A stretch of 64,000 nucleotides of DNA from Methanoculleus sp. (GTDB taxonomy: Archaea; Halobacteriota; Methanomicrobia; Methanomicrobiales; Methanoculleaceae), in NCBI RefSeq assembly GCF_020696975.1, contig NZ_JAJGBK010000017.1, forward strand, positions 4,804 through 68,803, written 5' to 3'. Every line of letters starts with the position of its first letter. Positions within the stretch are counted from its first letter, which is position 1. The position numbers and the translations under genes were made by a program. Below the pieces are notes generated by a model, which saw only the letters and a program-made list of their open reading frames with translations, ran no database searches and was not told where the DNA came from. Of this stretch, positions 31,824 through 46,037 are shown piece after piece.

Positions 31824-32039
31824 TCACTCTCTTATCGCTTCGATTGTCTCCTCGCGCCCCCGCCAGATGATCAGCGCAAGACCGATCACGATGAGCGGGA
31901 CGCCGTATATGAGGGGGAACGGGAGCACCAAGATCGCTACGGCTGTGATCACCGCGCCGATGGCGGTCAGGGCAATCCCCCAACGTGCCGGACTCCGCAT
32001 ACCTATCCCTGAGACGGGTGGGGGGATAACCATTCGCAT
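31824..32039 (-). CDS. Small two-TM membrane protein
   Basis: 71 aa with two hydrophobic helices. Lies 6 nt upstream of the ybjQ-like gene on the same strand. Confidence 0.5.
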   Translation of the reverse strand: MRMVIPPPVSGIGMRSPARWGIALTAIGAVITAVAILVLPFPLIYGVPLIVIGLALIIWRGREETIEAIRE

Positions 32040-32202
32040 TCTTCCCCCGGATCATGACTTATCCTCCGGATCTCTGGAGGATCTCTATGGCACCGATCGC
32101 CAGCGGCCCATCCGGGATAGCTGAAGTAAAGAGGCTGGAGTCACAATATGTACGAAAAGTTCGGATGCGTCTCGATGATACGATCGACCAGCACCGTCAG
32201 GA

Positions 32203-33063
32203 GTGAAGCAGTTGTATAAGATAGAAGCGGCGACCAAACTCGCCGACCGGGTTTATGAATACTGGATACGCGCGCCGCAGGTGGCGCAGCACGCGCGGGC
32301 AGGCCAGTTTGTCATCCTGCGCCTGCACGAGGCGGGCGAGCGCATACCCCTCACCATCTCCGCCGTCAGGGGAGACGCCGTTCGGGTGATCTTTATGACC
32401 GTCGGCAAGACGACCGAGGAGCTTGCGACGCTCCGTGCGGGCGACAGCATCAAGGATGTCGTGGGACCGCTCGGGAAACCGAGCGAGATTGAGAACTACG
32501 GCACCTGCTGCGTCATCGGCGGCGGTGTGGGGATCGCGAGCACGCCCCTCATCGCGAGGGAACTGAAAGAAGCCGGAAATCACGTTATCGGGATCATCGG
32601 GGCGCGCAGCGCCGATCTTCTCATCCTTGAGGACGAGATGAAGGAGATCTGTGACGACCTCTACATCACGACCGACGACGGGAGCAAGGGCGTTCACGGG
32701 TTTGCGGCCGACGTCCTGAAGAAACTGCTCGGCGAGCAAAAGATCGACCGGGTCTGGATCATCGGCCCTGCCATCATGATGAAGGTTACCTCCGGCGTGA
32801 CGGTGCCCTACGGTGTGAAGACTTACGTCAGCCTCAACCCGATCATGGTCGACGGGACGGGGATGTGCGGCTCCTGCCGGGTGACCGTCGCCGGGGAGAC
32901 GAAGTTCGCCTGCGTCGACGGTCCCGAATTCGACGCCCACCAGGTCGATTTTGTCGAACTGATGCAACGGCAGCGGATCTACACCGGGCAGGAGAAGGTC
33001 TCGCTTGAGCGGTTTGCGGAGCACCGGTGCCGGTGCGGCGAAGGGGGCCACCACCATGAGTGA
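32203..33063 (+). CDS. nfnA: NfnA/SudB-like FAD/[2Fe-2S] subunit (ferredoxin:NADP oxidoreductase / sulfide dehydrogenase small subunit)
   Basis: GQFVILRLHEAGERIPLTI and the C-terminal cluster motif GTGMCGSCRV...FACVDGPEF. GTG start. Confidence 0.85.
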   Translation: MKQLYKIEAATKLADRVYEYWIRAPQVAQHARAGQFVILRLHEAGERIPLTISAVRGDAVRVIFMTVGKTTEELATLRAGDSIKDVVGPLGKPSEIENYGTCCVIGGGVGIASTPLIARELKEAGNHVIGIIGARSADLLILEDEMKEICDDLYITTDDGSKGVHGFAADVLKKLLGEQKIDRVWIIGPAIMMKVTSGVTVPYGVKTYVSLNPIMVDGTGMCGSCRVTVAGETKFACVDGPEFDAHQVDFVELMQRQRIYTGQEKVSLERFAEHRCRCGEGGHHHE

Positions 33064-34402
33064 CCGGCCGGCTGACATCCGGGTCAAGGACTTCAGGGAG
33101 GTCGACTGCGGCCTCTCCGCCGACGAGGCTATCGCCGAAGCGGAGCGCTGCCTCCAGTGCAAGAAACCGCTCTGCGTCAGGGGCTGCCCGGTCGGCATCG
33201 ATATTCCCGCGTTTGTCCGCGAGGTTGCGGAGGGCAACTTCCCGGCAGCCGCACGGGCGCTCAAGGAACAGAACATGCTCCCCGCCATATGCGGGCGTGT
33301 CTGCCCGCAGGAGACCCAGTGCGAGGGCGTCTGCATCCTCGGCAACAAGGAGACCTCGATCCGGATCGGCGCGATCGAGCGGTTCGTGGCTGACTGGGAG
33401 CGGGGGAACGGCCCTGAGCTCCCTGAGGTGGCGAAGCCGACCGGGAAGCGTGTGGCGGTCGTGGGGTCCGGCCCGGCCGGGCTGACGGCCGCGGCCGAGC
33501 TCGCCCGTGCCGGCCACGCTGTCACGATCTTTGAGTCGCTCCACGAGGCCGGCGGTGTCCTGACCTACGGCATCCCTGCGTTCAGGCTCCCGAAGGATGT
33601 CGTCAGGGCGGAACTCGACCAGGTGCTCGCCCTCGGCGTCCGCTTAAAGAAGAACCATCTCGTGGGAAGGAGCGTCAGCGTGGACGAACTCCTCGGCTAC
33701 GACGCGGTCTTCCTCGCGACCGGCGCAGGGCTTCCCGCGTTCATGGGCATCCCCGGGGAGAACTTAAACGGTGTCTACTCAGCAAACGAATTCCTCACGA
33801 GGGTGAACCTGATGCACGCCGAGGCGTTCCCTGAGTTCGACACCCCGGTCCTGCATGGGGCGCGCGTCGCGGTGATCGGCGGCGGCAACGTCGCGATGGA
33901 CTCAGCCCGGGTGGCACGCCGCCTGGGTGCGAAGGTCTCGTTGATCTACCGGCGGGGTGAGGAAGAGATGCCGGCACGGAGGGCCGAGGTCGGGCACGCG
34001 AAGGAGGAGGGAATCGAGTTTTACACCTGCACGAACCCTACCCGGATCCTCGGCGAGCAGTGCTGCGTCACCGGTATCGAGTGCGTGAAGATGTCCCTCT
34101 GCGGCGTCGACGCGAGCGGCCGCCGGTCCCCGGAGCCGATCGAGGGGAGCGAGTTCATCCTCGACGTGGACATGGTCATCCAGGCGATCGGCACGAGCCC
34201 GAACCCGCTCCTCGTCTCCCTGATCCCGGGCCTCGAGCGCGGCCGGAGAGGCAACGTCGCCGTCGACAAGAACGGTCGGACGTCCATCCCCCACGTCTAC
34301 GCCGGCGGGGACATCGCCACCGGCGCCGCGACGGTGATCGAGGCGATGGGCTCGGCAAAACGCGCGGCGGCGGCGATCGGCGCGATGCTGAAAGAAGAGT
34401 AA
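33056..34402 (+). CDS. nfnB: NfnB/SudA/GltD-like NADPH-dependent oxidoreductase large subunit
   Basis: CLQCKKPLCVRGCPVGIDIP, ICGRVCPQETQCEGVC, VAVVGSGPAGLTAA, GGDIATGAATVI. The ATG at 33056 overlaps the nfnA stop. Confidence 0.9.
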   Translation: MSDRPADIRVKDFREVDCGLSADEAIAEAERCLQCKKPLCVRGCPVGIDIPAFVREVAEGNFPAAARALKEQNMLPAICGRVCPQETQCEGVCILGNKETSIRIGAIERFVADWERGNGPELPEVAKPTGKRVAVVGSGPAGLTAAAELARAGHAVTIFESLHEAGGVLTYGIPAFRLPKDVVRAELDQVLALGVRLKKNHLVGRSVSVDELLGYDAVFLATGAGLPAFMGIPGENLNGVYSANEFLTRVNLMHAEAFPEFDTPVLHGARVAVIGGGNVAMDSARVARRLGAKVSLIYRRGEEEMPARRAEVGHAKEEGIEFYTCTNPTRILGEQCCVTGIECVKMSLCGVDASGRRSPEPIEGSEFILDVDMVIQAIGTSPNPLLVSLIPGLERGRRGNVAVDKNGRTSIPHVYAGGDIATGAATVIEAMGSAKRAAAAIGAMLKEE

Positions 34403-34455
34403 ACTCATTTTTAGGGCGGGCCCGGAAGTTCTGCCCCGACAGAATCGGGTCCAGC
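34261..34455 (+). repeat. Direct repeat copy 1: 3' end of nfnB plus ~50 nt downstream
   Basis: Aligns collinearly with 37091-37275, by eye ~85% identical over the last 47 codons and stop. Similarity weakens after the stop. Confidence 0.75.
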
Positions 34456-34568
34456 CTATTCCCTACCTCGATGGTACGGGAAGTGCAGACCGGTCTCCTG
34501 CCTTCGGGCAGTCGCGCGGTGATTTTAACCGGCTTTTTGCAGGCACTGTGTGAAGGCAGGGGACCGGA

Positions 34569-35147
34569 TCAGTCGTCCTCCCTGCACCGGATCGCAATCG
34601 CGAGGAGGTTAAACCCGATCAGTGGCAATCCGACTGCCCAGTAGAGAGTGATGAGCCCGCTCCAGGGATGAAGTGTAGGCGAAGGCGAGAGAACGGTATC
34701 CTTCACGACACAGGCAAAGATGATGGCGGCAAAGATTACGATGCCCGCGATCGCCCGAAGAGGGACGAACGCCTTCGCCTTCAGGCGTTCCGGGAGAAGA
34801 TGGACGAAGGCCAGGGACGCCGGAGATAGCGCTGCAAGCAGGCCGATCCAGACGACCTCGATCTCGCTCACCGGGTCCGAAAGGAACGAGCTCCCATCGG
34901 GATAGATCAGGAAACTCACGACACCAAGGGCCGAGACGGTGCCCGGGAGCAGCAGGTCGAAGTACCGTGGTCTGGTCTCCTCCCGTGCCACCGGGATGAA
35001 CAAGAGGAGCCCGATAAGGGAGAGCCCGCTCAATACGGACGTTACTGCAGAGAACAGAGGGGTAAGCCCGGTGAACGGGGCGACCCAGAAGAAAAAGAAG
35101 ATGGTTGAAGCACACGCAAGCGATACGCTACAGAAGGGCGTTTTCAT
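34569..35147 (-). CDS. Polytopic membrane protein (about 6 TM), hypothetical
   Basis: Hydrophobic helices throughout. The start is taken at MKTPFCSVSL (35147) so it does not overlap the upstream hydrolase gene. Lower GC than the core. Confidence 0.5.
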   Translation of the reverse strand: MKTPFCSVSLACASTIFFFFWVAPFTGLTPLFSAVTSVLSGLSLIGLLLFIPVAREETRPRYFDLLLPGTVSALGVVSFLIYPDGSSFLSDPVSEIEVVWIGLLAALSPASLAFVHLLPERLKAKAFVPLRAIAGIVIFAAIIFACVVKDTVLSPSPTLHPWSGLITLYWAVGLPLIGFNLLAIAIRCREDD

Positions 35148-35172
35148 CGCATGGCCTCGAGGTTCCAGCGGT

Positions 35173-36624
35173 TCATCCGATATAGAGCGCAAACTCGCTG
35201 ATCTCACCTTCATCTCCTTCATATGTATCCACAACTCTCAGTTGCCAATCGTGAATAGCTGCAAAACTTTCTGCTCGAACACTGAGTATCAGGTGATCTG
35301 CACTTCCACCCTGATTGTCCCAGATCTGATATTCAGCGTACTCGTCCCACGCCTCTTCCTTCCACCCAAGCCAGATATCCAGATCGGCTATGTAGGTATG
35401 GTCGATCAGGATTGTGAACAACATACTGTCGGAACAGGCAACGCCATTAATATGAGCATACGATGTCTGATAATCGGTTATCGGAACCGAACTTGACCCG
35501 GCTGTATCAGGAGATTCGGCCTTCGTCGAGTAAATGACCATTCCCATGGTCATCTTTTCCGTTTCTGATACGAGTATCCGTGTATAGTTGATGAGATTGG
35601 TATTTGTCCTCCAATTGAGATCGTAGTTCATAATCGTACAGATCGGCTCCAAATACTGATGAGACCATGCTGCAAAAGTTTTTGCATCTTCTGAGGGGTC
35701 GGTGATGATGTAGTAGGTATCAACGTCGGTTGCATCTTCAAACAAATCTCCCCAATTTGATCCCACCCATTCTTCGTAGTCCAGATGGTGTGCCTGTCCC
35801 ACTACACTCGACGTGTGGAACGGGCAGCCGAGATCCTCAATATAGTGTAGTCCTTTGCCAAGATTGATGTATGCAGAGTCAGAGTCATAGTTTGCGAAGT
35901 CGCTTTTTGCTGCATCTATATAGTACTCGCAGGAGTATGGTCCTAAATTGTCACCCGGTAGCGGGAAATCCCAGATATAAACCCAGGAGTGACGATTAAG
36001 CGTTCCAGGGGGTACAATCCCAATAGGCTCCTCGCGATGAACATCAGCCCAGCCGCTGTAATTCCGGAGTGTATCAGTATGTACAGAGGAGGTATACCCC
36101 AAATTCTCCCCGGCTGTCCCTGAAAAGTGCCAATGGCCCGGAGAGCCTGCCCATTTCGGACCGATGAACTCTCCTTCCGTCGCTTCGACCATAAGGTACG
36201 ATAGTTGCAGGAGAATCTCTTTCTCTTCTTCCTCAGAAAGCGATGATTCACCTTCAAAGATGCTTCGCACCGTATTTTCAAATTGTTTCCTATCATCCGG
36301 AAGACCCCGGAGGAGCTCCCTGACGAACGCCCAATCCTCTTCAGTCGGCTTTAGTTGCTTTGCTGGGATTTCTTTCCAATCTGAAGGGATCGCAATCCCG
36401 TGCAGCAATTTTTTGTCGGCCTCCACAATCGGAGAAACCGTAACAGAGTCTGGTTGTATCAATTCAAGTGACAGTTCCTGATCTAGGGTGCAGCCGTCGT
36501 TTGCGCCCGTTTTACCCGGAGAGTTTTTCACACAATTTGCACTCACAGCCGGCACCATCGTTCCGCTCACCAGCAGTGCAACGAGGAGCATGGAAAGTGC
36601 CCGCATTCCAATGGTTTCTTTCAT
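35173..36624 (-). CDS. Secreted zinc phospholipase C / P1-nuclease-superfamily-like hydrolase with C-terminal proprotein-convertase P-domain
   Basis: Sec signal MKETIGMRALSMLLVALLVSGTMVPAVSA. Zinc-ligand spacing H-x3-D-x5-H (HYIEDLGCPFH), then HH-x3-E, at 35773-35847. C-terminal P-domain-like DHTYIADLDIWL...WQLRVVD...GEISEFALYI. Confidence 0.7.
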   Translation of the reverse strand: MKETIGMRALSMLLVALLVSGTMVPAVSANCVKNSPGKTGANDGCTLDQELSLELIQPDSVTVSPIVEADKKLLHGIAIPSDWKEIPAKQLKPTEEDWAFVRELLRGLPDDRKQFENTVRSIFEGESSLSEEEEKEILLQLSYLMVEATEGEFIGPKWAGSPGHWHFSGTAGENLGYTSSVHTDTLRNYSGWADVHREEPIGIVPPGTLNRHSWVYIWDFPLPGDNLGPYSCEYYIDAAKSDFANYDSDSAYINLGKGLHYIEDLGCPFHTSSVVGQAHHLDYEEWVGSNWGDLFEDATDVDTYYIITDPSEDAKTFAAWSHQYLEPICTIMNYDLNWRTNTNLINYTRILVSETEKMTMGMVIYSTKAESPDTAGSSSVPITDYQTSYAHINGVACSDSMLFTILIDHTYIADLDIWLGWKEEAWDEYAEYQIWDNQGGSADHLILSVRAESFAAIHDWQLRVVDTYEGDEGEISEFALYIG

Positions 36625-36918
36625 CTGTTTGCCTCCTCTAACGTCCCCGGAGGCAAAGAGGCACAACCTTAATGTACATGGAATGCGAACCACTCTTTCG
36701 CCTTCGGGCAGCGGGGGGCTCATCCGGCCTTGGACGGATAGGGTGAGCCTCCACGGTTTTGCGAACGCTGTTTTGAGCATCCGCATAAGGGGATAGACCC
36801 GGGCCTATATAGCATTTCTCTCACAATCATCTACATGTCCTTTGGCTGTTCGTGAAAATGAGACGATCGATCCTGCGACGGGGAGCACGGACACAGGAGG
36901 ATGGCTGTTCTCGCGGCG
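36538..36918 (-). repeat. Cassette copy A: shared upstream region + TATA + ~155-nt 5' leader + signal-peptide codons
   Basis: Near-identical to 39499-39879 and 43243-43622 by direct alignment. Confidence 0.85.
36803..36840 (-). promoter_or_regulatory. Promoter A: TATA (CTATATAG) plus degenerate upstream box ACATGTAGA
   Basis: Position is equivalent to promoters B, C and D. It is the most diverged copy of the ACGTGTAAA box. Confidence 0.4.
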
Positions 36919-37061
36919 AGGAAAATCATGCGGTCTGCGTCGCGGAAGCTACGCAATGGATCAGGAGTAGAAGTTCGAGCAGCCGTCGGGCTCTGCTGTG
37001 CGGCTTCTCCGCAGGGAAAGGAGTCGAAACGCCGAAAGGGTGACGTGCGACGATTCGTGAG

Positions 37062-37232
37062 TGCGACGAATGGAACGTCCGGGACATCGTCATCGACAAG
37101 GACGGTCGGACGTCCATCCCCCGCGTCTACACCGGCGGGGACATCGCCACCGGCGCGGCGACAGTGATCGAGGCGATGGGTTCGGCGAAGAAGGCGGCCG
37201 CGGCGATCGACGCGATGCTCCGGGAAGAATAA
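37062..37232 (+). pseudogene. Orphan 3' fragment of an nfnB/gltD-like gene (last ~55 codons plus stop)
   Basis: Translates to ...IDKDGRTSIPRVYTGGDIATGAATVIEAMGSAKKAAAAIDAMLREE*, compared with nfnB VDKNGRTSIPHVYAGGDIATGAATVIEAMGSAKRAAAAIGAMLKEE*. There is no upstream coding continuation. Confidence 0.75.
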
Positions 37233-37275
37233 ATTTTTTTCGGATCGGCCCGGGGACAAGGCCGGGTCCAACCCG
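37091..37275 (+). repeat. Direct repeat copy 2 of the nfnB 3' end
   Basis: See 34261-34455. Confidence 0.75.
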
Positions 37276-37410
37276 TTCTTCAGGTGTGCCGCCTGGAGGG
37301 GCGATGTTTCACCAAAGCGGAGTTCGAGCGGGATGCCCCCTCATGCCCGGATGGGCAGGCGCGCATGCCGGACAGGAGCGTTTGCAAAGGGCGTATCCGC
37401 CGCCCCGACC

Positions 37411-38271
37411 CTATCTCCGCTTCCGGTACAGGACGAAACTCATCCCTACGCCAAAAGCCGCGAGGATCGTTCCGAACCCCGGCGTCGTCGTCCGGAGCGA
37501 CTGCCCGGGCGCCAGGTCCGAGGGGATCTGCACGACGTCCGTCTCCCGACCGGCCCGAACGGTGATCTCCCAGACTATCCGGTCGCTGTCGTAGACTTTC
37601 AGCACGACGTTCTCGACGCAGGCGCCCGGAGACTGCCCGGAGAGGACCTGCGCCTCCGCTTCGGCTCTCCCGACCGTGAGGTTCTCTTCCGAGATGTAGG
37701 TGGTGGAGACGATCTCTCCTCCCGAGAGGTCGACGATGTACTCCGTGAACACGCCGGTATCGTTGATGAAGTAGACCTGCGCCCGAGAAGGTTTGGACGT
37801 GATCTCCTCATAGCGGTTGGGGGATTGATTCTCGACGTACGACCGCACCCCGCCGTCGTTGCTGAGCGCCGGGTACTTCGCAAAAATCTTCGGGAAGGTG
37901 AGTTCCGCGGCCAGGGGCAGCGCCTCATCGCAGCCGATAATCCAGATTTGCCCGATGGACTGTTCGCCGCCGTGTTCATCGGCTCTAATCTTGTTTAAAT
38001 AGACGAGCTGTTCTTCGCAGGCGTTCGCCGGCACGATGTACACGTACTCATGCGTGTGGTTGTACGTGCTCTCATGCCACCAGATCTCCCCATGTTCAGC
38101 GATGAATGCGGTGATCGTCTCGTTGGTCTTCGCGTTCGGGTGAACCCCAAACAGAATTCCCGTCTGGTTTCCCTGCCCAGGGAGAGGCGTCACGACCGCA
38201 TCTGCGGGTATGCTGCAGACAAGCACCGCAAGGATGAGACCGAGCATCAGAAGGACAACGCTTTTCGACAT
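37411..38271 (-). CDS. Exported surface protein with PGF-CTERM archaeal sorting signal (possible PepSY-like module)
   Basis: N-terminal signal MSKSVVLLMLGLILAVLVCSIPADA. C-terminal TTPGFGTILAAFGVGMSFVLYRKRR (PGF + TM + basic tail). The segment RAEAEAQVL...VENVVLKVYDSDRIVWEITV looks PepSY-like by eye. Lies 10 nt downstream of the transglutaminase-like gene. Confidence 0.7.
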   Translation of the reverse strand: MSKSVVLLMLGLILAVLVCSIPADAVVTPLPGQGNQTGILFGVHPNAKTNETITAFIAEHGEIWWHESTYNHTHEYVYIVPANACEEQLVYLNKIRADEHGGEQSIGQIWIIGCDEALPLAAELTFPKIFAKYPALSNDGGVRSYVENQSPNRYEEITSKPSRAQVYFINDTGVFTEYIVDLSGGEIVSTTYISEENLTVGRAEAEAQVLSGQSPGACVENVVLKVYDSDRIVWEITVRAGRETDVVQIPSDLAPGQSLRTTTPGFGTILAAFGVGMSFVLYRKRR

Positions 38272-38280
38272 AAAAAAGGG

Positions 38281-39585
38281 TTAGTTATACCTCGGAACCT
38301 CTCCGAGGAGAATCTGCGTTCTGAAATCTTCGTACCTGAGAATGCCATCGCCGGTTGGGTCGTTCGGGTCCTGCGTGTAATAGGAGTCATCGGCGTCACC
38401 GTAGATGGTGATGTTGATGTGGTTGTTTCCCGCTGCCCTGTAAACCTGGGGATTGTCAAATACATCCCATGTTGGATCCGAGTGGATCCAGGCATTTCCA
38501 TTCCATGATTCTGCAATAGCATGCCCTGTTATATTACCGGAAGGCAGTTCCATGGTGAACGATAGGAATCGCGTCGGGATGCCCAGTGCGCGGGTGAAGG
38601 CGGTATACAGGGTCCCATACTCATCGCAGACCCCTTGATATTTTCCGTTTATGGGAGACGGATGGTCTAGGGTATACAGATCAGAAAATATATACTCAAC
38701 GTACATTGTTTCGTTATTATATTCCATCATATCATGAACCCGTTGCATTATTTCGTAGGCAGACTGATACGGCTCTGTCGTACCATCAGCTGCCTGCGCT
38801 GCTTCGAGTAACACCCTATATCCCTCACTGAATGGGAAATGATATAGATCACTTGTCTCGAGGTTTTCTCCGCCGTCAGGATCGAAGAGATGCGCCGCAT
38901 CGTTGTTATACTTTTCTATGGCATCGATCGGCATTCTTGCCATCCACGACGTAAGGCCGGTCGGATCAACTCTGATCTCGACTGCCATCGGTTTTATTCC
39001 GATGGAACTGTGCTGTGGGAGAACCTCGAATGGAACCGTCACAGTGAGGTCCGCTCCCGCTGCAAGATCCGAGAAGGGTACACCACACCCATACCCATCC
39101 TTAAGCGACCAGAGGATGACCATCCCGCTCGCTGCAGAAGAAGCATAGTTATGAATCGTGATCTCGTGGTAGACAAATGTGTCCTGTGTCCAGTACCAGG
39201 AGATAGTTCCCTGGGTCATCCTCACGTCCGGCATTAAATCCCTGGTGCCGAGGTCACTGCTCTCGGTTTGCAGCGTCAATGATACTTTACCGGGAGAGGT
39301 TGGAACTATGTCTGCATCGATTACCGGGAATTCTGATTCTCTCTTCGGATCTAGAATGATTACTCCGGGGTGCTGCCGTGCGATCTCCTCAGTGATCGGA
39401 ACCCTCTGCGGGGTTTCAATGACCGGAGTATACTTCGACATATCCCTTGGCTCAACCCACTGGTCGAACGTATCGAGCCAGCCCCTTGATTCATTCTCTG
39501 CACTCACCGCCGGCACCATCGTTCCGCTCACCAGCAATGCAGCGAGAAGCATGGAAAGTGCCCGCGGTCCAATTGTTTCTTTCAT
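38281..39585 (-). CDS. Secreted transglutaminase-like cysteine protease superfamily protein
   Basis: Signal MKETIGPRALSMLLAALLVSGTMVPAVSA. Core Cys-His-Asp motif GVCDEYGTLYTAFTRALGIPTRFL...GHAIAESW...WIHSDPTWD. Confidence 0.75.
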   Translation of the reverse strand: MKETIGPRALSMLLAALLVSGTMVPAVSAENESRGWLDTFDQWVEPRDMSKYTPVIETPQRVPITEEIARQHPGVIILDPKRESEFPVIDADIVPTSPGKVSLTLQTESSDLGTRDLMPDVRMTQGTISWYWTQDTFVYHEITIHNYASSAASGMVILWSLKDGYGCGVPFSDLAAGADLTVTVPFEVLPQHSSIGIKPMAVEIRVDPTGLTSWMARMPIDAIEKYNNDAAHLFDPDGGENLETSDLYHFPFSEGYRVLLEAAQAADGTTEPYQSAYEIMQRVHDMMEYNNETMYVEYIFSDLYTLDHPSPINGKYQGVCDEYGTLYTAFTRALGIPTRFLSFTMELPSGNITGHAIAESWNGNAWIHSDPTWDVFDNPQVYRAAGNNHINITIYGDADDSYYTQDPNDPTGDGILRYEDFRTQILLGEVPRYN

Positions 39586-39879
39586 CTGTTTGCCTCCTCT
39601 AACGTCCCCGGAGGCAAAGAGGCACAGTTCTTAAGTACAGGGAGTGCAAATCTATCTCTTGCCTTCGGGCAGTGGGGGGGCTCATCCGGTCTTGGACGGA
39701 TAGGGTGAGCCTCCACGGTTTTGCGAACGCTGTTTTGAGCATCCGCACAAGGAGATAGGCATCAAGCCATTTATGTTTTCTGTCCTTTTTCTTTACACGT
39801 CCATCGGCTGTTTGCGAAAATGAGGCATTCGGTCTCATCCTGAAGGATGCAGGTGCAGGAGAACGAATATTCTCGCGGC
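39499..39879 (-). repeat. Cassette copy B: shared upstream region + TATA + 5' leader + signal-peptide codons
   Basis: Direct alignment with copies A and C. Confidence 0.85.
39765..39802 (-). promoter_or_regulatory. Promoter B: GGACGTGTAAAGAAAAAGGACAGAAAACATAAATGG (box + TATA)
   Basis: The ACGTGTAAA box and GACAGAA half-site sit immediately upstream of a TATA-like element. The arrangement is shared with C and D. Confidence 0.45.
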
Positions 39880-39946
39880 AAGGAAGGTCGTGCAAGGTAC
39901 GCCAGTCGATCCGGGCGGACGGGCATCACCGGATCCGGCGCTCCAT

Positions 39947-40969
39947 CTATCCCCAGAAGAGCATCCAGACCCCGAATCCTATCAACAGGATCCCGCTTCC
40001 CGCTCGAATAACATCCCTGTACTCCCGTATCCTGCTTGACGAGGCATATCCCCCGAGGACTCCGACGCCGAAAAACGGCGTGAGCACCCCGGCTCCGAAG
40101 ACCAGCAGGAGCGATAGATCCTGCACAGTGCCGCCGATCAGGATTTTGTTCAACAGAATGAGGAGCATCGGTGCGGCACACGGAGCCTTGACGATCGAGA
40201 ACACCATGCCCAGAACGAACAACCCGGCAAGGGTGGTCGCGTGCTTCTGTATGGATGACTTAACGTAGTCGTCGGTGGAGATCGGGAGCCGTATCAACCC
40301 GAGCAGGTTCACCCCGGCGAGTATCGTGATCAGTCCCGCCGCGACGGTGAGGTACGGACCGAAGCCGCCGAGGGACATCCCCGCCAGCAGGAAGCAGCAT
40401 CCCATGACGATATACGCAGCGACCAGCCCCAGGCCGAATATCAACGAGTTCAGGAGACTGCTCCTCAGCCCGTTGCCCGACCCGGTGACGTAGGCCAGTA
40501 TGAATCCAAGGATTGCCATCAGGCAGGGCGAGAACCCGGAAAAAAGACCCAGGGAGTATGCAAGCGGAATGTCCCAGTTTATCGGCGGCGAGTTCTCCTG
40601 CAGCTCAGCGCCGGCAAGAGACCGCTCGATCGCCGCCCTGAGGTTCTCTTCGGTGATCTCCTCTTTGGGAATTGTGACGGTGCCGTCCACGACCACGGCC
40701 GGGATTTCGAGAAATTCGTATGCGTTCCATCGCTCCCACCCGTCTGGTGTATTGACGTCAATTTCTTCCACGTTCAAGGTGGAACCATAGGCCCCCTTCA
40801 GGTCGGCAATAATCGGATAGGTTAATTCGCACTCAGAACAGCGAGATGTATGAAAATATTCTACGTGAATAACAGATGCACCGGCGAGGGGGATTAACCC
40901 GATGAGGACCATCGCAACCGCGACGGCAACTATGTTATTCGTTAACCGGTGAATCATGAAATCAGCCAT
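39947..40969 (-). CDS. Thioredoxin-like (CxxC) domain fused to CcdA/DsbD-family thiol-disulfide membrane transporter
   Basis: N-terminal TM, then HTSRCSECELTYPII (CxxC). The CcdA core has conserved Cys in GFSPCLMAIL and VKAPCAAPML. Confidence 0.8.
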   Translation of the reverse strand: MADFMIHRLTNNIVAVAVAMVLIGLIPLAGASVIHVEYFHTSRCSECELTYPIIADLKGAYGSTLNVEEIDVNTPDGWERWNAYEFLEIPAVVVDGTVTIPKEEITEENLRAAIERSLAGAELQENSPPINWDIPLAYSLGLFSGFSPCLMAILGFILAYVTGSGNGLRSSLLNSLIFGLGLVAAYIVMGCCFLLAGMSLGGFGPYLTVAAGLITILAGVNLLGLIRLPISTDDYVKSSIQKHATTLAGLFVLGMVFSIVKAPCAAPMLLILLNKILIGGTVQDLSLLLVFGAGVLTPFFGVGVLGGYASSSRIREYRDVIRAGSGILLIGFGVWMLFWG

Positions 40970-41273
40970 TTGTTCGTGAATTCCCACCGGGGAAATACAC
41001 TCGAATCAGTATCTTCATGCCCGACGTATGCATCCGATTCCTTCAGAGAAGGTTCAATCGCAATGAAAATCACCCTTTAGGTGGTCATGGGAATTTTTTG
41101 GGGCGAAATAATGAATTGCCTGCTTGTCTGTTTTCGTACGTTTTCGCTGTGCTCATCGACAAACCAAGAGGTATAATCCGTCGATTACTATGTCTTGGTT
41201 CTCGTCCATGGCAGGAAATGAAGATAATCGACGATGCTTCCGTACCTTACACAGGAAAAAGGCACATGCGATT

Positions 41274-42011
41274 TCACGTTTTCTTGCCCCGGAGGACCAG
41301 CAATGCTCCTAATACCCCAATGATACCAGTATGAAGACCGAATCCCGGAACTTCCTGGCCTGACGGTTCCAATTCCAGGTCAAGTTCGTTCGTCAGATTT
41401 CCAAAGACAATCTTGCGCTGGAGGGGCTGGTAGCCCTCTTTCTGAACGATGATGGTCTGATCGTACCCGATCGCGTTTTCGATCAGATACCTGCCATCTC
41501 TTCCGGTTGTGTTTGTCACCGAGAAGATTTCATCATCCAGCGCAAATCTCATCTCAAATCTCACAGATGCATTGGGAATCGGGTTGCCTTCAGGGTCTGT
41601 CACCCTGCCCGAAACGGTGATCGCCGGCGGCGGAGGGATTCCAGTGTGCCTGGTCACGTTCAGAGTTTTTTCCGCTCGGTTTCCGAGGTTATCGGTCGCT
41701 ATGACCGTGATTCTGTTCTTCCCCGTAGAGACCGGCACGGAGCATGCGAACTTCGTCTCGTTCCCGCATGAAACCTCCCCTACCCCGCTTTGAACAACCA
41801 CGCTCCGTATGCCGGAAGGGGCATCGGCCTCGCCGATAACCACAACGTGAGGCGGAACGACATCGATCCAAACTTCATCACCGTCATTCGGGGAGATGAT
41901 TGTAAGATTTATCGGTTCCCCGATGGAAGCCGTATTTTCAGATGGAAGGCCCGAGCAGACTGCAGGATACGCGATAATCGCTAGTATGGCAACAATCAAA
42001 GATATGCGCAT
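41274..42011 (-). CDS. Exported Ig-like + carboxypeptidase-regulatory-like domain protein with PGF-CTERM anchor
   Basis: Signal MRISLIVAILAIIAYPAVCSG. ITVSGRVTDPEGNPIPNASV (CarboxypepD_reg-like). C-terminal EVPGFGLHTGIIGVLGALLVLRGKKT. Lies 19 nt downstream of the metalloprotease gene. Confidence 0.7.
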   Translation of the reverse strand: MRISLIVAILAIIAYPAVCSGLPSENTASIGEPINLTIISPNDGDEVWIDVVPPHVVVIGEADAPSGIRSVVVQSGVGEVSCGNETKFACSVPVSTGKNRITVIATDNLGNRAEKTLNVTRHTGIPPPPAITVSGRVTDPEGNPIPNASVRFEMRFALDDEIFSVTNTTGRDGRYLIENAIGYDQTIIVQKEGYQPLQRKIVFGNLTNELDLELEPSGQEVPGFGLHTGIIGVLGALLVLRGKKT

Positions 42012-42030
42012 TACCAATCCCGTCCAAAAA

Positions 42031-43329
42031 TTAGGCTGAGGGGCCCCACGGCGTGCCGTCGAGCGGGTCGAGAATTCCATCATTGTCATAATCGCCCCAA
42101 CCGATGAACCGCCTGCTGGATGTGCTTATCGTCGATGTTTTGTAAGGATCCCTCATAACACTGTTGGTTGACGAAGGGCACGAAACATGATTTGTATTTG
42201 TATACATATCGTGCATCGGGCTGACAGCAAGAATACTGGACTGTCCGCAGGAACTTGCTCCAGCATATTCGTCAAGGGCACCGTAGAGGTGCAATGATTC
42301 GTGTTCATAACTGCCAGGCTGCGAAGCGAATCTTCCGGATGATGATCTACCCCAGTATGAAATCGCAGTTTTATCTGCATAACCTTGGTCAGGACCCACC
42401 GCATAACCGCCCATGTCGTCATGTGTTAGGTAGAGAAGTATGACGGTATCTGCTCCGGACCAACTTTTTGCCGATCTCGCCATGTCATCTGTTGTTCTTC
42501 CATCGCCATTGCTGTCAGAGTAGCCAAGATTTCTTGCTGCTTCTTCCATCCATCCATTTACACCCCAGGCATGGATGTTATCGCCAGTATTTGCTCCAGA
42601 AACGGTTACAGTATAATAACCGCCATCGTTGACAGCGTTGGCACCCGAAGGCGCTTGTTGGCGAATTGCATTTGTTCCGGAATATGCATCACTCAATGCA
42701 TCATCTCGATCCGCCACGGTCCATGCTCCATCGCTGCTTTGGGTTTGGAAGTTAGTGATTAAATACAAATAGTACATTTTTCCATGTGCATAGGGTGCTG
42801 ACTGAGTGCCGGGAGGAATATAGTCCTGAATCCGGTTATCTGGCGCAAAGGTCCCGCCATGATAATTTTGATGATCTTTCACAAGCTGCTCTCTGTGTGA
42901 TCGGATAAATCGATCCGTCTCATCGGCATCAAACCCTAAAACGAGCCCTAGATCTTTCCCAAATTTGTCCAGGTCTGATATGTAATAGTAACGATGATCT
43001 ACATCATAATACCTGATCAACACCTGCTTTTCAAGAATTTGTGAGTATTCCTTGATCTCCTCTTCAGATATACCCCAATTCAACTTTTCATTCCAATAAC
43101 TCAGATAGACTACCGTATTATCGATGATCACTCCATCATCATGTTCCATGAGATGCAATGATTCCGCATCCGGCGGTACAAGCTGCTCCGGTACAGGCAC
43201 ATCAATGCCAATGATGTTTGTGTTTTCACTTTTTCCTTCGCTCGCACTCACTGCCGGCACAACACCCGCGCTCACCAGCAGTACGGCGAGGAGCGCGGAG
43301 AGTGCTCGCATTCCAATGGTTCCATTCAT
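42031..43329 (-). CDS. Secreted zinc metalloprotease (metzincin-like, HExxHxxGxxD)
   Basis: Signal MNGTIGMRALSALLAVLLVSAGVVPAVSA. HESLHLYGALD at 42271-42303. Downstream SVMRDPY is a Met-turn candidate. C-terminal DYDNDGILDPLD is a Ca-binding-like repeat. Confidence 0.7.
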   Translation of the reverse strand: MNGTIGMRALSALLAVLLVSAGVVPAVSASEGKSENTNIIGIDVPVPEQLVPPDAESLHLMEHDDGVIIDNTVVYLSYWNEKLNWGISEEEIKEYSQILEKQVLIRYYDVDHRYYYISDLDKFGKDLGLVLGFDADETDRFIRSHREQLVKDHQNYHGGTFAPDNRIQDYIPPGTQSAPYAHGKMYYLYLITNFQTQSSDGAWTVADRDDALSDAYSGTNAIRQQAPSGANAVNDGGYYTVTVSGANTGDNIHAWGVNGWMEEAARNLGYSDSNGDGRTTDDMARSAKSWSGADTVILLYLTHDDMGGYAVGPDQGYADKTAISYWGRSSSGRFASQPGSYEHESLHLYGALDEYAGASSCGQSSILAVSPMHDMYTNTNHVSCPSSTNSVMRDPYKTSTISTSSRRFIGWGDYDNDGILDPLDGTPWGPSA

Positions 43330-43622
43330 TTGTTTTTCCTCCTGTAATGTTCCCGGAGGCAGAAGAGGCACACCCTTAAGTACATGGAATGCGAACCACT
43401 CTTTCGCCTTCGGGCAGTAGGGGGTTCACCCGGCCTTGCACGGATGGGGTGAGCCTCCGCGGTTTTGCGAACGCTATTCCAAGCATCCACACAAGGACAT
43501 GGGCGTCGATCTATTTAGAAATTCTGTCAGATTCATTTACACGTTCGCGGATATTTGCCGAAAGTGAACGGAGAGAACCCTCCCCGGAAGACGAGGGCAC
43601 AGGAGAGAACCTATTCTCACGG
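43243..43622 (-). repeat. Cassette copy C: shared upstream region + TATA + 5' leader + signal-peptide codons
   Basis: Direct alignment with copies A and B. Confidence 0.85.
43510..43546 (-). promoter_or_regulatory. Promoter C: GAACGTGTAAATGAATCTGACAGAATTTCTAAATAG (box + TATA)
   Basis: Same box/half-site/TATA layout as B and D. Confidence 0.45.
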
Positions 43623-43816
43623 TGGTATATGCCGCATAGGACGCAGCACCCTCTGACCGCCGCACTTGCGCGCGCCCTGCACCCGAAGTACTGGGTTCTG
43701 TCGATGGACAGGCAGGCCTGCCGGCCGATTGCATAAACTGTATCAGCCATGAGTGACAGTACCTTCAACCTGTACAAAAACCCGTCGAAACCAGAACGCT
43801 CCTGTCCTGAGGTCCC

Positions 43817-44509
43817 ATGAAAAAGAGCCAGATTGTCATCTGGAGCATCCTCATCGCTCTCGTCTTCGTGCATTATTTCTACATGCCCGAGCAGCCCGAG
43901 ATCACCAAGGGAGAGATGCATATCTCTTTTGACTCCCGGGAGTGCCGACCCGACCTGGTTGACCTCTGGAATACGCTTGTACAGGAGCAGGCGTTTTCGA
44001 ACGAGTCGGCCGTGCTCATCCAGCTGAACCAGCATATCAACAAAGACGGAACAGTGCAGTGCACCGAACTCCACTGGATCGGCTACGTAGACGGGGAGGA
44101 GCACGCGTACGAGGTATATGTCCACCAGAGCGGCAACATATATTATAACGACCAGATATTTGACTTCCCCATACAGGGGGTACATCCCCTCGCCATATTA
44201 CGCGAGGTCGACAGGATCGAGTTTGACGATCTTATTCACGGAGAATACAACATAACGCTCACGACGTTCAAACACGACGGTCCAATGACCTACAACAGAA
44301 CCAACGGCGACCTGTACGCCTTCGCGGACGGATCACTCCGTTCCCTGAGGGAGGCCACGTTCTCTTCCGAAGCATCCCGGCATATGATCGAGATCTTCCC
44401 GGAGATCGGGCAGTCGGGCGAGATTACGACCGCAGAGAGCATATCGGATCGCATCATCCTCTTCCCCGAACAGGAGATCGCCCGGGCCGACTCCGTCGTC
44501 CACGCATGA
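43817..44509 (+). CDS. N-terminally membrane-anchored hypothetical protein
   Basis: 230 aa with TM IVIWSILIALVFVHYFY. Protein-like composition, unlike the antisense ORF 43511-44185. The segment VDGEEHAYEVYVHQSGNIYYND is faintly PepSY-like. Confidence 0.5.
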   Translation: MKKSQIVIWSILIALVFVHYFYMPEQPEITKGEMHISFDSRECRPDLVDLWNTLVQEQAFSNESAVLIQLNQHINKDGTVQCTELHWIGYVDGEEHAYEVYVHQSGNIYYNDQIFDFPIQGVHPLAILREVDRIEFDDLIHGEYNITLTTFKHDGPMTYNRTNGDLYAFADGSLRSLREATFSSEASRHMIEIFPEIGQSGEITTAESISDRIILFPEQEIARADSVVHA

Positions 44510-44613: not shown

Positions 44614-45387
44614 TCAGATACCGGTACCGGACACACGCCCCCCGGGGATCGCAGGCTTCCACGATCCGTGGGCTTGTACATACTCTTTCGCATCGGCGCA
44701 GAGATAGTAGCGTACGAACCGTCCTTTCTTCTCGTCTCTGACAATACTGTCCCGGAGCAGCGGTTTCATATGCCAGGTGACGTTCGCGCCCGACATCATG
44801 AGCCGGGACGCGATCTCTTTTCTCGTGCTTCCCGGATGTTGCAAAACGATATTGAGTATCCGACTCTTTGACTGCTCGTTGAGATATCCCGCCACCTTTC
44901 GTTCCAGATCGGGACAGGCGCCCGTGTCGGCGTAATATCTCATACCACTGCAGTTCGGCTCGGGGACGACCGTTCCCATCCTGCATAACATCTCTACGTG
45001 GTAGCGGAGGGTTCCGATATTCATCTCGAGCAACCGGGAGAGAGATCTTGTATTTATCCCCGGATTATCGCGTATGCACAGGTACGCTGCATTCCGGGTT
45101 TCGTTCTCAAGGACGTTATTTTGCAGGACCCTCTTATGGCCGAAATGCAGCCATGCGAGTAGCGAGAATACAAGCTGCATCGGGACAAAGAGCACCGGAA
45201 CGAATATGGATACGAGTCCGAGAATAACAATATCCAGGGGGATATTCCAGACGTACACCGGCATCGGATCCAAAGGCACCCTCTCCGGATATGCGTCCTG
45301 AACGATAGTAGCACATGCGGCAGACGGCAGCAGTGCGAGGCAGAGGATGGCCAGAGCGATTCCGGCAATCCGCACTCGCACGACCAT
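44614..45387 (-). CDS. Membrane-tethered transcriptional regulator with two winged-helix (ArsR/MarR-like) domains
   Basis: Signal/TM MVVRVRIAGIALAILCLALL plus a second TM VILGLVSIFVPVLFVPMQLVF. Then two wHTH-like units: NAAYLCIRDNPGINTRSLSRLLEMNIGTLRYHVEML and RILNIVLQHPGSTRKEIASRLMMSGANVTWHMKPL. TTTTTATT ~27 nt upstream of the ATG suggests a leaderless mRNA. Confidence 0.7.
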   Translation of the reverse strand: MVVRVRIAGIALAILCLALLPSAACATIVQDAYPERVPLDPMPVYVWNIPLDIVILGLVSIFVPVLFVPMQLVFSLLAWLHFGHKRVLQNNVLENETRNAAYLCIRDNPGINTRSLSRLLEMNIGTLRYHVEMLCRMGTVVPEPNCSGMRYYADTGACPDLERKVAGYLNEQSKSRILNIVLQHPGSTRKEIASRLMMSGANVTWHMKPLLRDSIVRDEKKGRFVRYYLCADAKEYVQAHGSWKPAIPGGRVSGTGI

Positions 45388-45470
45388 GGATTTATATAAA
45401 ATCGGTGTCAATAAAAAGATTTGGTTTGGTAGGTGTTCGGCTTTGTTGAAAGCGTGTGAGAGGTAATCAT

Positions 45471-46037
45471 TTAAGCATAAGCATTGCAATTCAAAATATA
45501 CGGAATGGTTTCTGTCACACTCTCTCCATACACTTCAATTCTCCAGGTACCTGATGCAGGGCTGCTTATATCTACGCGGATCCGTCCATCCAGACGTCCG
45601 CCATAATTGTCATGGTACGAACCATACAGGCCCCCATCCGGTCTGTAGATCTCCAATTCCAGGGAGTGGTCCGGGGTAAACCAGTTTAAGTCGACATTCA
45701 GTAAGGACATACCGGCTGGTACATTGAGCAGATGAGTATCAGTCTCCCCCTGTGTGATCGTAAAATACTCACGGGTTCCGTACCCGTCCGCCTGCGAGAG
45801 AAGTCCCGCGACTCCGTCATTTTCGTTTCCGATACCTGTAGCTGAAACCACCGGCACGATGAAGGCGACGACGGCCAGAAGCCTATAATGCGACTGATCT
45901 TCATCAGAATCTACCGATGAGACATCAGTAGACCTCCGTATAAAAATTCTGTCCAATTTCTTTACACGTTTTATATACGCAAGCATTACGTCGATCTCGG
46001 CGCGTGAAAGATCGCCCGAGCGTCTCCGGAATAGCAC
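45471..46037 (-). CDS. Membrane-anchored or secreted protein with pre-peptidase C-terminal (PPC)-like domain
   Basis: Hydrophobic segment YRLLAVVAFIVPVVSATG. PPC-like GETDTHLLNVPAGMSLLNVDLNW...LELEIYRPDG...GTWRIEVYG. The start is uncertain because cassette-type promoter D lies inside the 5' part of the ORF. Confidence 0.5.
   Translation of the reverse strand: MLFRRRSGDLSRAEIDVMLAYIKRVKKLDRIFIRRSTDVSSVDSDEDQSHYRLLAVVAFIVPVVSATGIGNENDGVAGLLSQADGYGTREYFTITQGETDTHLLNVPAGMSLLNVDLNWFTPDHSLELEIYRPDGGLYGSYHDNYGGRLDGRIRVDISSPASGTWRIEVYGESVTETIPYILNCNAYA
45937..45971 (-). promoter_or_regulatory. Promoter-like element D: AAACGTGTAAAGAAATTGGACAGAATTTTTATAC
   Basis: Best match to the B/C box + half-site + TATA layout, but located within ORF 45471-46037. 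Confidence 0.35.

Follow-up and report, generated by a model that had tools for sequence, protein, structure and literature searches.

A modular head of promoter, leader and signal peptide shared by unrelated secreted-protein genes in a variable array of Methanoculleus

The DNA analysed here, called the window throughout, is a 64,000-nucleotide stretch of a Methanoculleus genome (RefSeq assembly GCF_020696975.1, contig NZ_JAJGBK010000017.1, positions 4,804 to 68,803 of the forward strand), and within it lies an array of secreted-protein genes in which three unrelated coding regions, all on the minus strand, begin with nearly the same DNA. This shared beginning, referred to below as the head, would consist of an upstream region with a GC-rich hairpin and a T-tract, a promoter with TATA box and B recognition element (BRE), a leader of about 165 nucleotides (nt) and, usually, a Sec-type signal peptide of 29 amino acids (aa). 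A repeat search of the region 33-46 kb returned three-copy families beginning at 36538, 39499 and 43243, and a covariance-model search of the window found three full copies, all in the array. These copies, designated A, B and C, are direct repeats, and each has its own TATA box, leader and ATG.

Copy A precedes a gene for a phospholipase C (PLC)/alpha-toxin-like protein. Its 29-codon Sec-type signal peptide (MKETIGMRALSMLLVALLVSGTMVPAVSA) is encoded at 36538-36624 on the minus strand, with the ATG at 36624-36622, and the similarity to copies B and C ends at 36538. Ahead of it, at 36625-36787 (-), lies a structured 5' leader of type I, about 163 nt long (covariance model 87.7 bits, E 2e-25; minimum free energy (MFE) -60.8 kcal/mol, z -2.15). 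The elements recognized in this leader are, on the same strand, the P1a hairpin (36785-36776 / 36769-36760), helix P2 (36754-36744 / 36722-36711), which encloses P3 (36738-36735 / 36726-36723), the P4 segment UGCCCGAAGGCGAAAGAG (36710-36693), a CCUC-rich anti-Shine-Dalgarno (anti-SD) segment UUUGCCUCC (36657-36649) and the Shine-Dalgarno (SD) sequence GGAGG (36636-36632). A predicted promoter and conserved upstream region at 36788-36940 (-), delineated by reading the sequence and by an alignment of 51 upstream regions, contains a TATA-like CTATATAGG (36812-36804, -) with a purine-rich, BRE-like GAGAGAAA before it, and, as further elements, a GGACRTGTA motif, a GC-rich hairpin of variable sequence with a T-tract, and the palindrome CTCGCCGCGAG. 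Its resemblance to the archaeal TATA/BRE consensus suggests that this region functions as a promoter. An AUG at 36786 (-), found in copy A only and situated inside P1a, is in phase with the PLC gene and opens a 537-aa open reading frame (ORF; 35173-36786); it is unlikely to be used, because the other copies have GUG or UGU at that place.

Copy B, located before a transglutaminase (TGase)-like gene, comprises a signal peptide (MKETIGPRALSMLLAALLVSGTMVPAVSA) at 39499-39585 (-), a type I structured leader at 39586-39749 (-) (covariance model 81.1 bits, E 2e-23; MFE -57.0 kcal/mol, z -2.73), and a predicted promoter (TAAATGG at about 39767-39773) with conserved upstream region at 39750-39900 (-), which abuts the stop codon of a DsbD-like gene (39947). 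Copy C, before a metalloprotease gene, has its signal peptide (MNGTIGMRALSALLAVLLVSAGVVPAVSA) at 43243-43329 (-), its type I leader at 43330-43493 (-) (covariance model 102.7 bits, E 6e-30; MFE -65.7 kcal/mol, z -2.80), and its predicted promoter (TAAATAG at about 43511-43517) with conserved upstream region at 43494-43650 (-), beyond which orf230 (43817-44509, +) runs divergently. In most heads, a GC-rich hairpin followed by a T-rich tract is present about 60-110 nt upstream of the TATA box (36850-36940, 39810-39900 and 43560-43650 on the minus strand of the window), and the hairpin sequence varies by copy, for example CAUCCU/AGGAUG, CCUGCG/CGCAGG and CCCUC/GAGGG. This hairpin with its T-tract may act as a terminator or insulator of the preceding unit. 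RNAalifold gave no consensus structure for the upstream region, the hairpin being visible copy by copy only.

When each copy with 140 nt of flank per side was compared with the whole window by blastn, A and B were 85.7% identical over 328 nt (36538-36862 / 39499-39824; E 5e-102), A and C 81.5% over 302 nt (36539-36838 / 43244-43544; E 4e-78), and B and C 77.2% over 338 nt (39490-39823 / 43233-43567; E 1e-64). An earlier reading of these letters without database searches, the sequence-only reading, had described three near-identical heads on unrelated genes, and the alignments bear it out (77-86% identity, E 1e-64 to 1e-102). That reading had also set the length of the shared block at about 380 nt; the block is real, and its length has to be revised. 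Upstream of the part aligned by blastn, a patchy, weaker similarity continues among the three copies, and because conservation in the family alignment of 51 upstream regions extends up to about 140-150 nt upstream of the TATA box, the head measures approximately 430 nt, of which the shared non-coding part takes about 340 nt, including the structured leader of about 165 nt. At the 3' edge, the similarity ends abruptly at the predicted signal-peptidase site, as had been noticed: in all three copies it stops precisely with the codon that closes the 29-aa signal peptide (...VSA). The similarity is not confined to the signal-peptide codons, since promoter and leader are also shared, nor are the three genes full-length paralogues, for blastp detected no similarity among the mature parts of the three products beyond residues 1-29. 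The leaders differ by indels between copies, and no upstream ORF is shared by the three leaders.

The three bodies behind these heads are of different kinds. Body A (35173-36537, -) joins a zinc PLC/alpha-toxin-like domain to a C-terminal P-domain-like beta sandwich. In Foldseek searches with its AlphaFold2 model (pLDDT 84), Clostridium alpha-toxin (1olp) was matched with an E value of 8e-10 and Bacillus cereus PLC (1ah7) with a TM score of 0.54-0.56 over about 225 residues, and the C-terminal beta domain matched the furin/Kex2 P-domain (E 3e-4). By phmmer, the comparison with B. cereus PLC gave E 0.07, and Pfam gave no match to body A. Many His, Asp, Glu and Trp residues are invariant among 25 homologues, including H164, H212, D225, H260, E263, D264, H270, H280 and E284. 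The model thus assigns body A to the zinc PLC/alpha-toxin family, an assignment in which the invariant residues are not mapped one by one onto zinc ligands. Body B (38281-39498, -) is a secreted protein with a TGase core, Cys-protease-like (Pfam PF01841, E 7.6e-12). Body C (42031-43242, -) is a metalloprotease, putatively a metzincin/adamalysin-like zinc protease, with the motif HExxHxxGAxDE, in which H343, E344, H347, G350, A351 and E354 are invariant and D353 is nearly so among 32 homologues; its AlphaFold2 model (pLDDT 84) showed weak fold matches to fragilysin and ADAM17 (E 5e-3, TM 0.25-0.36), and no Pfam match was obtained. The sequence-only reading had called these proteins a PLC-like enzyme with a P-domain, a TGase-like Cys protease and a HExxHxxGxxD metalloprotease, and all three calls are confirmed, the first by the matches to alpha-toxin, B. 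cereus PLC and the furin/Kex2 P-domain, the second by the Pfam TGase core, and the third by conservation of the motif across the homologues.

Each body is accompanied by accessory genes on the minus strand, and together they form units A, B and C. In unit A, the accessory gene (34569-35234), recognized as an ORF with a hydrophobic sequence, encodes a 221-aa polytopic membrane protein, and it is kept beside the PLC gene, with 92% DNA identity, in a related contig (L003; related contigs and loci are cited by such numbers). Unit B has a gene for a PGF-CTERM secreted or anchored protein (37411-38271; Pfam PF18204), which always follows the TGase gene in related contigs. Unit C contains a gene for a PGF-CTERM/CarboxypepD_reg protein (41274-42089) and one for a DsbD/CcdA-like thiol-disulfide membrane protein (39947-40987), both identified by Pfam and NCBIfam; in the latter a glutaredoxin-like N-terminal domain scores below the cut-off of the Pfam Glrx-like model. 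The three-gene order of unit C also occurs on a Methanofollis-type contig (L072), where a pair of genes for a BlaR1-like Peptidase_M56 and a BlaI-like Penicillinase_R protein (4352-6347 of that contig) adjoins the metalloprotease/PGF-CTERM/DsbD operon. The DsbD-like gene recurs about once per unit in related arrays (L019, L021 and L025), with four tblastn matches in L019, two of which are adjacent pieces of one gene. Its product may promote disulfide formation in Cys-rich secreted products.

The head is by no means restricted to the window. A genome scan with a 20-base leader motif, performed on one genome per species, returned nine archaeal-type loci, of which eight are titled Methanoculleus or Methanobacteriota and the ninth is L003; two Peribacillus matches in the same scan were rejected as chance. 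L003 (CAYYEN010000387.1) is titled an uncultured Spirochaetaceae metagenome-assembled genome, but it has the head and is 92% identical to the PLC unit of the window, and most likely it is a Methanoculleus contig that was binned wrongly. Heads are also carried by the cultured strains Methanoculleus formosensis Afa-1, M. sediminis S3Fa and M. methanifontis FWC-SCC3 (loci L002, L011 and L007). Sixty contigs were matched in a metagenome scan with a looser three-block pattern, and an nhmmer profile search produced 96 matches. With a covariance model trained solely on the divergent type II leaders, 94 copies were recovered from Methanoculleus genomes and metagenomes, among them the three type I copies of the window (E 1e-22 to 1e-29), and diverged leaders were found on three contigs beyond these 94 copies. 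No leader match was found among 2.9 million viral contigs.

Translation of the ORFs behind the heads from their start codons yielded 19-20 unrelated mature-protein families, most of them without a Pfam domain. The Pfam and NCBIfam domains that were found include TGase, Reprolysin_5 (M12), Peptidase_S8 (subtilase), DUF6345 and DUF4367. Two of the commonest bodies, of about 245-255 aa (L019:7503-7698, L028, L040 and others), have a Cys-rich hydrophobic end of about 70 residues. At related loci, family F4 matched the halocin C8-like profile TIGR04449 over profile positions 1-69 of 69 with E 6e-4 and 20.7 bits, which is below the cut-off of 24, and family F1 gave no match to this profile. In other genera, such as Methanosarcina and Methanoregula, orthologues of the PLC-like protein and the metalloprotease have unrelated signal peptides, so the head is lineage-specific and the bodies are widespread. 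A metalloprotease orthologue on L072, a protein listed by NCBI for Methanofollis sp. W23, has a diverged leader upstream (model E 1e-11) in which P4, AAAGGGAA, the CCUC segment and the SD are kept and P1a is absent. The upstream region of the Methanolacinia petrolearia orthologue contains no leader, and L077 matched the leader model at E 0.31 only. A modular head shared by unrelated secreted-protein genes is therefore well supported, and the portable expression-and-export head suggested by the sequence-only reading is found, in this search of related genomes, before about 20 unrelated families in 94 copies.

Among the parts of the head, the leader deserves particular attention. In L005, L011, L038:6985 and L002:6111, promoter and leader are kept and the signal peptide is of a lipobox or other type, with replaced signal peptides that include the lipobox sequences ...LLSSGC and ...LLTAGC as well as MKLERTG.... 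Because some copies keep the leader with a different signal peptide, the leader of about 165 nt is conserved in its own right. The signal peptide is under a selection of another kind: the entropies at codon positions 1, 2 and 3 are 0.49, 0.42 and 0.79 among 40 distinct copies, and because the third-position entropy exceeds that of the first two, selection acts at the peptide level. The leader alone is conserved purely at the nucleic-acid level, and hence the earlier claim that the block is conserved as DNA or RNA rather than as protein stands for the leader and fails for the signal-peptide codons.

Two leader types are distinguished, type I with AAAACCGYGGAGGCUCACC and type II with AAAAGGUGUGGGGCUGCC. 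The helices annotated on the type II alignment are P1a at the predicted 5' end, P2 capped by P3, P4 (UGCC-CGRA-GGCR), a variable P5, and a hairpin formed by CCUCC and the SD GGAGG. In the alignment of all 94 copies, 86.6% of the cells hold standard pairs versus 39-48% when the partners are slid by 1-3 columns, and 20 of 42 pairs have changed on both sides; in none of 500 shuffles were paired cells, both-side changes or covariation score as high as observed, and one of 500 attained the observed value for further pair types, figures that come from an alignment of related sequences fitted to the covariance model and in which shuffle counts are not probabilities. More weight is carried by helices that are kept with unrelated sequence in distant variants. 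P2 is formed by GGGGUUCA/UGAACCCC in L075, GGGGUUCU/AGAACCCC in L079, GUGUGGGGC/GCCCCGCAU in type II and CAGGG/CCCUG in L059; unrelated hairpins stand in for P1a in L001/L038:3814, L075 and L079; and the SD hairpin of L051 has CUGUUUCC/GGAAACAG instead of CCUCC/GGAGG. The leader fold is thus supported by helices with covariation. A closing helix RUGCG/CGCAY (columns 28-32 / 143-147 of alignment A5) came out with the largest number of pair types when all columns were crudely scanned against one another, but it was dropped, since it and P1a compete and its type II form is weak and rich in G-U pairs; a kink-turn/L7Ae site at the invariant GGRUGA was likewise dropped, the opposite strand having no tandem G.A. 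The leader matches none of the 4227 families of Rfam 15, and a permissive Rfam scan of 34000-44500 gave only chance matches to small nucleolar RNAs and microRNAs, well below gathering scores. The sole Rfam match in the window is an archaeal RNase P RNA at 26221-26566 (-), with 209 bits.

The array has a fixed place and a changing content. Wherever a contig has sufficient flank, the units with heads are bounded by gltD on one side and, on the other, by a flank of orf230, a helix-turn-helix (HTH) regulator, a PPC-domain protein and an MFS gene, and the number, order and content of units differ from contig to contig. A typical unit consists of a head, then a secreted protein, then a PGF-CTERM or membrane protein, and then a DsbD-like gene, and the heads of the window, as of every related array examined, share one orientation. 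The far flank is constant in several contigs and comprises the regulator (44614-45489, -), orf230 (43817-44509, +), a conserved membrane or secreted ORF of 230 aa that is divergent from head C, and the PPC-domain protein (45471-46037, -). The regulator is a membrane-anchored protein with a double winged helix (HTH_24 / HVO_0163-type by Pfam; ArsR/SdpR-like by NCBIfam), and it co-occurs with the array in L021, L025, L035 and L052; it is a candidate for a trans-acting factor at the shared promoter.

The G+C content of the array (35-46 kb) is 48-57% against a background of mostly 60-68%; it is lowest in the bodies and reaches 54-57% in the heads, a pattern consistent with foreign bodies that were fitted with a native head. 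Within the heads, sub-blocks have different histories. L022 and L028 are identical at 0.95 in the upstream region, 1.00 in P1a, 0.44 in the core and 0.91 in the signal peptide, and L022 and L032:2976 at 1.00 in the core, 0.39 in P5 and 0.34 in the signal peptide; because these sub-blocks are mosaic, the copies have recombined with one another, in line with the homogenisation by gene conversion that the sequence-only reading had named as one possibility. Leader type, signal-peptide variant and body family are combined freely across copies. Moreover, four bodies in four genomes are preceded by versions of one contiguous 770-nt block with 88-90% identity, which in the window (36538-37291) extends from the signal peptide through leader, promoter and spacer to a fossil of the gltD 3' end; the bodies are the PLC in the window, the TGase in L009, the metalloprotease in L038 and a fourth family in L002.

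The gltD fossil itself, 157 nt at 37084-37240 (+) between units A and B, is 85% identical to the real gltD end at 34254-34410, and the same fossil is present upstream of heads in L002, L009, L033, L036, L038 and L061. From 37084 to 39834, a stretch with this fossil, the genes for the PGF-CTERM protein and the TGase, and head B, the window is 98.0% identical to L009, in which the gltD piece is the genuine end of the gene; the gltD region of the window (31475-34425) is only 88% identical to L009, and the array of the window is chimeric for this reason. Judged from these alignments, the fossil marks the junction of unit A with an L009/L019-like block, and the whole suggests that new units join the array next to gltD through homologous recombination, with old gltD ends left behind. 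In L001 and L016 an orphan leader is all that is left, and orphan or truncated heads occur in L001, L016, L031 and L034. A partial leader relic of 61-76 nt, matched by nhmmer at E 5e-5 and 7e-5, is located in the window at 34474-34549 (-) and retains only the 3' side of P3, P4 and P5; it follows immediately on the stop codon of gltD and lies past the end of the gene for the 221-aa membrane protein. A 46-nt match at 34474-34519 was rejected as a fourth copy, for nhmmer gave only a partial match, the covariance model gave none and no gene lies behind it; it is regarded as a fossil.

So much exchange raises the question of whether the conservation has any function, as recent duplication with ongoing gene conversion in a tandem array could preserve a sequence whose fold is incidental. 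The strong mosaicism, the near-identical sub-blocks of paralogues, the high identity of copies and the orphan heads would all agree with such an origin. It nevertheless appears very unlikely, given that variants diverged beyond recognition still form P1a, P2, P3 and the SD hairpin through compensatory changes, that the signal-peptide codons show a third-position excess, and that the leader persists with replaced signal peptides and on the Methanofollis-type contig; in addition, conversion alone leaves the fixed position and orientation before every ORF unexplained. Still more improbable, to the point that we give it almost no credit, is a mobile repeat, such as a miniature inverted-repeat transposable element, a fragment of an insertion sequence or a viral element, that happened to insert in front of genes. 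Such an element would leave orphan fragments and many copies per genome region, but the head always stands in frame and orientation with the downstream ORF and supplies the start codon and signal peptide of that ORF, within the window all copies fall in a single array, viral contigs did not match it and no transposase is nearby, and the copy ends are not discrete, the upstream end varying by copy. The same block was not found at many unrelated loci; all copies with enough flank are in one array and before an ORF.

The array also calls to mind the variable surface genes of Mycoplasma, in which DNA inversion moves a promoter. Heads would in that case be recombination substrates that change the expressed body, through cassette exchange or through phase or antigenic variation. 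A conserved 5' untranslated region and signal peptide on variable bodies in an array, as in vsp and vpma (PMC3365025), array content that differs in every contig, and the occurrence of truncated heads speak for the comparison. Yet each head here has its own intact TATA box, leader and ATG, and the heads share one orientation, therefore recombination between them would delete rather than invert. The bodies, furthermore, are enzymes and not repetitive surface lipoproteins, and no recombinase, transposase or integrase was found within 10 kb of the array (ORFs scanned from about 21 to 56 kb). Such switching of expression is accordingly given little credence, at a level hardly different from that accorded to functionless conservation.

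A leader that is conserved in its own right, and that holds an SD within a hairpin, could control translation. The P4 segment UGCCCGRAGGCRAA is its most invariant stretch and is almost invariant (CCCGAAGGC; anti-SD GCCUCCGGG). It is complementary over 9-14 bp to the downstream CCUC-rich UUUGCCUCCGGG, and it mimics the SD region (GGAGGCAAA), so that the CCUC segment is able to pair either with the P4 segment or with the SD. Family-wide, the pairing of P4 segment and anti-SD is formed in 87% and is kept in distant variants, and the anti-SD:SD helix (helix 9) is paired in 95.7% of the 94-copy alignment. The first of these pairings is the MFE fold in many copies and in all three distant variants, and in window copies A, B and C the MFE folds sequester the SD, through a 9-bp helix in A and B. 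The energies of the ON and OFF folds are -58.0 and -60.8 kcal/mol in copy A and -55.1 and -57.0 kcal/mol in copy B, a difference of 2-3 kcal/mol. The 5' strand of P2, whose GGAGGC pairs with GCCUCC in 92.7%, was considered as an anti-anti-SD and rejected, its partition-function probability being about 0 in individual leaders; the P4 segment is the better partner.

From these complementarities, a switch can be proposed. In the ON state, pairing of the P4 segment with the anti-SD would leave the ribosome site free; in the OFF state, P4 would be taken up in a small local hairpin, and anti-SD:SD pairing would hide the ribosome site. A factor acting on the P1a-P4 domain, be it a small ligand, a protein or temperature, would set the balance between the two. 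It is plausible that the leader acts as such a switch.

The main rival to the switch is a role of the leader as a stabiliser or standby site. The leader would then be a constitutive element for high expression or stability, in which P1a shields the mRNA from 5'-end-dependent decay, the rest is a structured spacer or standby site, and nothing is sensed; genes that share the head would gain no more from it than strong expression and export. Such a role accords with the position of P1a at the very start of the predicted transcript and its maintenance as a hairpin with unrelated sequences, with an SD that is free in the MFE fold of most copies, with SD sequestration not above that of shuffles, and with switch helices that do not covary. 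It accounts poorly for the Methanofollis-type leader, which has no P1a yet keeps P4, anti-SD and SD; a near-invariant P4 segment of 14-18 nt that is exactly complementary to the anti-SD across lineages exceeds the needs of a stabiliser, and in the window copies the 9-bp SD-sequestering helix is nearly isoenergetic with its alternative. On balance, this explanation is doubtful, although it deserves to be taken seriously.

A special case of the switch is a small-molecule riboswitch of a new class, in which P1a, P2, P3 and P4 form the aptamer and P4 segment, anti-SD and SD form the expression platform. Riboswitches are rare in archaea. A conserved multi-helix domain with covariation (in an alignment fitted to the model), the conserved unpaired stretches CAAAA and AAAGRG, mutually exclusive helices, the presence of one leader before many genes of one functional theme in several lineages, and the lack of an Rfam match all suit a riboswitch. 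The sequence and loop of P2/P3, on the other hand, differ strongly among type I, type II and distant variants, with no evident single pocket, and the regulated genes have no metabolic link that would point to a ligand; a small-molecule riboswitch is thus held to be unlikely, more so than the stabiliser.

The interpretation that we favour, and consider probable though well short of certain, is that the head is a recombining element with a cis-regulatory leader RNA that serves a hypervariable, co-regulated locus of secreted proteins. The head would give unrelated bodies a common transcription start, a leader-mediated control of translation and an export route, and so would unite them in one regulon. 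Recombination would take place between heads because the head is a long repeat that occurs once per unit; acting at the heads and at the gltD 3' end, homologous recombination would shuffle, add and delete units, homogenise sub-blocks, and spread the head to newly acquired low-GC bodies.

Several points weigh against this interpretation. The TATA-like box, about 24 nt upstream of P1a, is the sole basis of the predicted transcription start site, on which transcription of the leader depends in turn. The pair statistics overstate independence, because related sequences were used and were aligned to fit the model, and recent spread by recombination, instead of selection, could lie behind much of the conservation in sequence. 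Between types I and II, identity in P2/P3 is about 44%, which is not what one conserved ligand pocket would show. The pairing of P4 segment with anti-SD, and the core GGAGGC:GCCUCC, show essentially no covariation, as both strands are nearly invariant, and something else, for instance a bound protein or a standby site for the ribosome, could account for their conservation. Moreover, the family-wide pairing probability of the SD is 0.53 versus 0.69 with shuffled upstream sequence and hence is not enriched, and the canonical anti-SD:SD helix has a probability above 0.5 in only 10 of 67 leaders. Finally, the case for an antagonistic role of the locus is circumstantial, consisting of fold and domain resemblance, and the halocin match lies below its cut-off.

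A bolder version of the recombining, regulatory head is put forward tentatively, at a level of belief that stays low. According to it, the leader would represent a new class of archaeal regulatory RNA, riboswitch-like or protein-responsive and built from an SD mimic, an anti-SD and an SD, that coordinates the translation of strain-specific secreted effectors against competitors, and the head would at the same time be a recombination handle through which newly gained low-GC effector genes enter the array beside gltD, which would make the locus a recombinase-free archaeal counterpart of integrons and polymorphic-toxin loci. The effectors could be the alpha-toxin-like PLC, which could attack bacterial ester lipids, the proteases, and the halocin-C8-like peptides.

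Methanoculleus is among the dominant methanogens in biogas reactors, and the present locus is of interest in several respects. The leader is a candidate for a regulatory RNA family with at least 90 members, whose fold can be tested and for which a specific mechanism is proposed; to our knowledge, very few cis-regulatory RNAs are known in archaea, and we know of none tied to protein secretion. The array indicates that promoter, leader and signal peptide can evolve as a portable unit, which is fitted by homologous recombination to unrelated and probably horizontally acquired bodies, and the fitting of heads is a possible route by which foreign genes obtain native expression and export. With its alpha-toxin-like PLC, proteases, possible halocin-C8-like precursors, DsbD-like genes and variability among strains, the locus is also a candidate for archaeal antagonism against bacteria or other archaea, a field with little experimental data. 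In methanogen engineering, the head could be tried as an expression-and-secretion cassette. In the literature covered, on untranslated regions, signal peptides, riboswitches and halocin C8 in relation to Methanoculleus, no description of the head was found, a 2019 mBio survey of archaeal conflict systems being outside this coverage. Beyond the sequence-only reading, the analysis adds how large and widespread the family is, that the leader has a fold and is conserved independently, that the hypervariable array occupies a fixed site, and that recombination has left fossils.

Known systems resemble the locus in part. The vsp genes of M. bovis and the vpma genes of M. agalactiae combine a conserved 70-bp non-coding region and a 31-aa lipoprotein signal peptide with variable bodies and an adjacent Xer recombinase (PMC3365025). 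They are likewise clustered, share a conserved 5' non-coding region and signal peptide, have divergent mature parts, and vary in content by strain; the array described here differs by its direct-repeat heads, each with a promoter of its own, by the lack of a recombinase within 10 kb, by a shared non-coding part of about 340 nt with a structured leader, by unrelated enzyme folds and by its archaeal host. In the lpl cluster of Staphylococcus aureus, a conserved sequence that occurs once per gene in a tandem array is a site of homologous recombination, which shuffles the flanking variable regions between strains (PMC2568036). There too, a repeat per gene drives the shuffling of variable parts, but the conserved region lies in the middle of the ORF of paralogues, whereas here promoter, leader and signal peptide are carried by non-paralogous bodies.

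With bacterial translational riboswitches and RNA thermometers, the leader shares a CCUCC-type segment that can pair with the SD or with an upstream SD-like segment and so would govern ribosome access. Unlike bacterial platforms of SD, anti-SD and anti-anti-SD, it has no match in Rfam and no covariation in its switch helices, it is archaeal, and the genes behind it form a putative secretome regulon, not a metabolic pathway. Polymorphic toxin loci and archaeocin (halocin C8) loci, in which an N-terminal trafficking part is conserved and a C-terminal toxin varies, are similar in that a conserved export part is joined to variable payloads at a hypervariable locus, and the halocin-C8-like Cys-rich precursors (below cut-off) and the DsbD-like gene per unit add to the likeness; here, however, the conserved part is a cleaved signal peptide plus non-coding DNA instead of a protein domain, no immunity genes were identified, and the toxin function is putative. 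Integron arrays, lastly, are also polarised series of variable units at a fixed chromosomal site, and new units at the present locus seem to be added gltD-proximally, leaving fossils of the gltD end. In contrast to integrons, there is no integrase, attI or attC here; the units are delimited by a head of about 430 nt instead of attC-like imperfect palindromes and have their own promoters, and their exchange apparently proceeds by ordinary homologous recombination.

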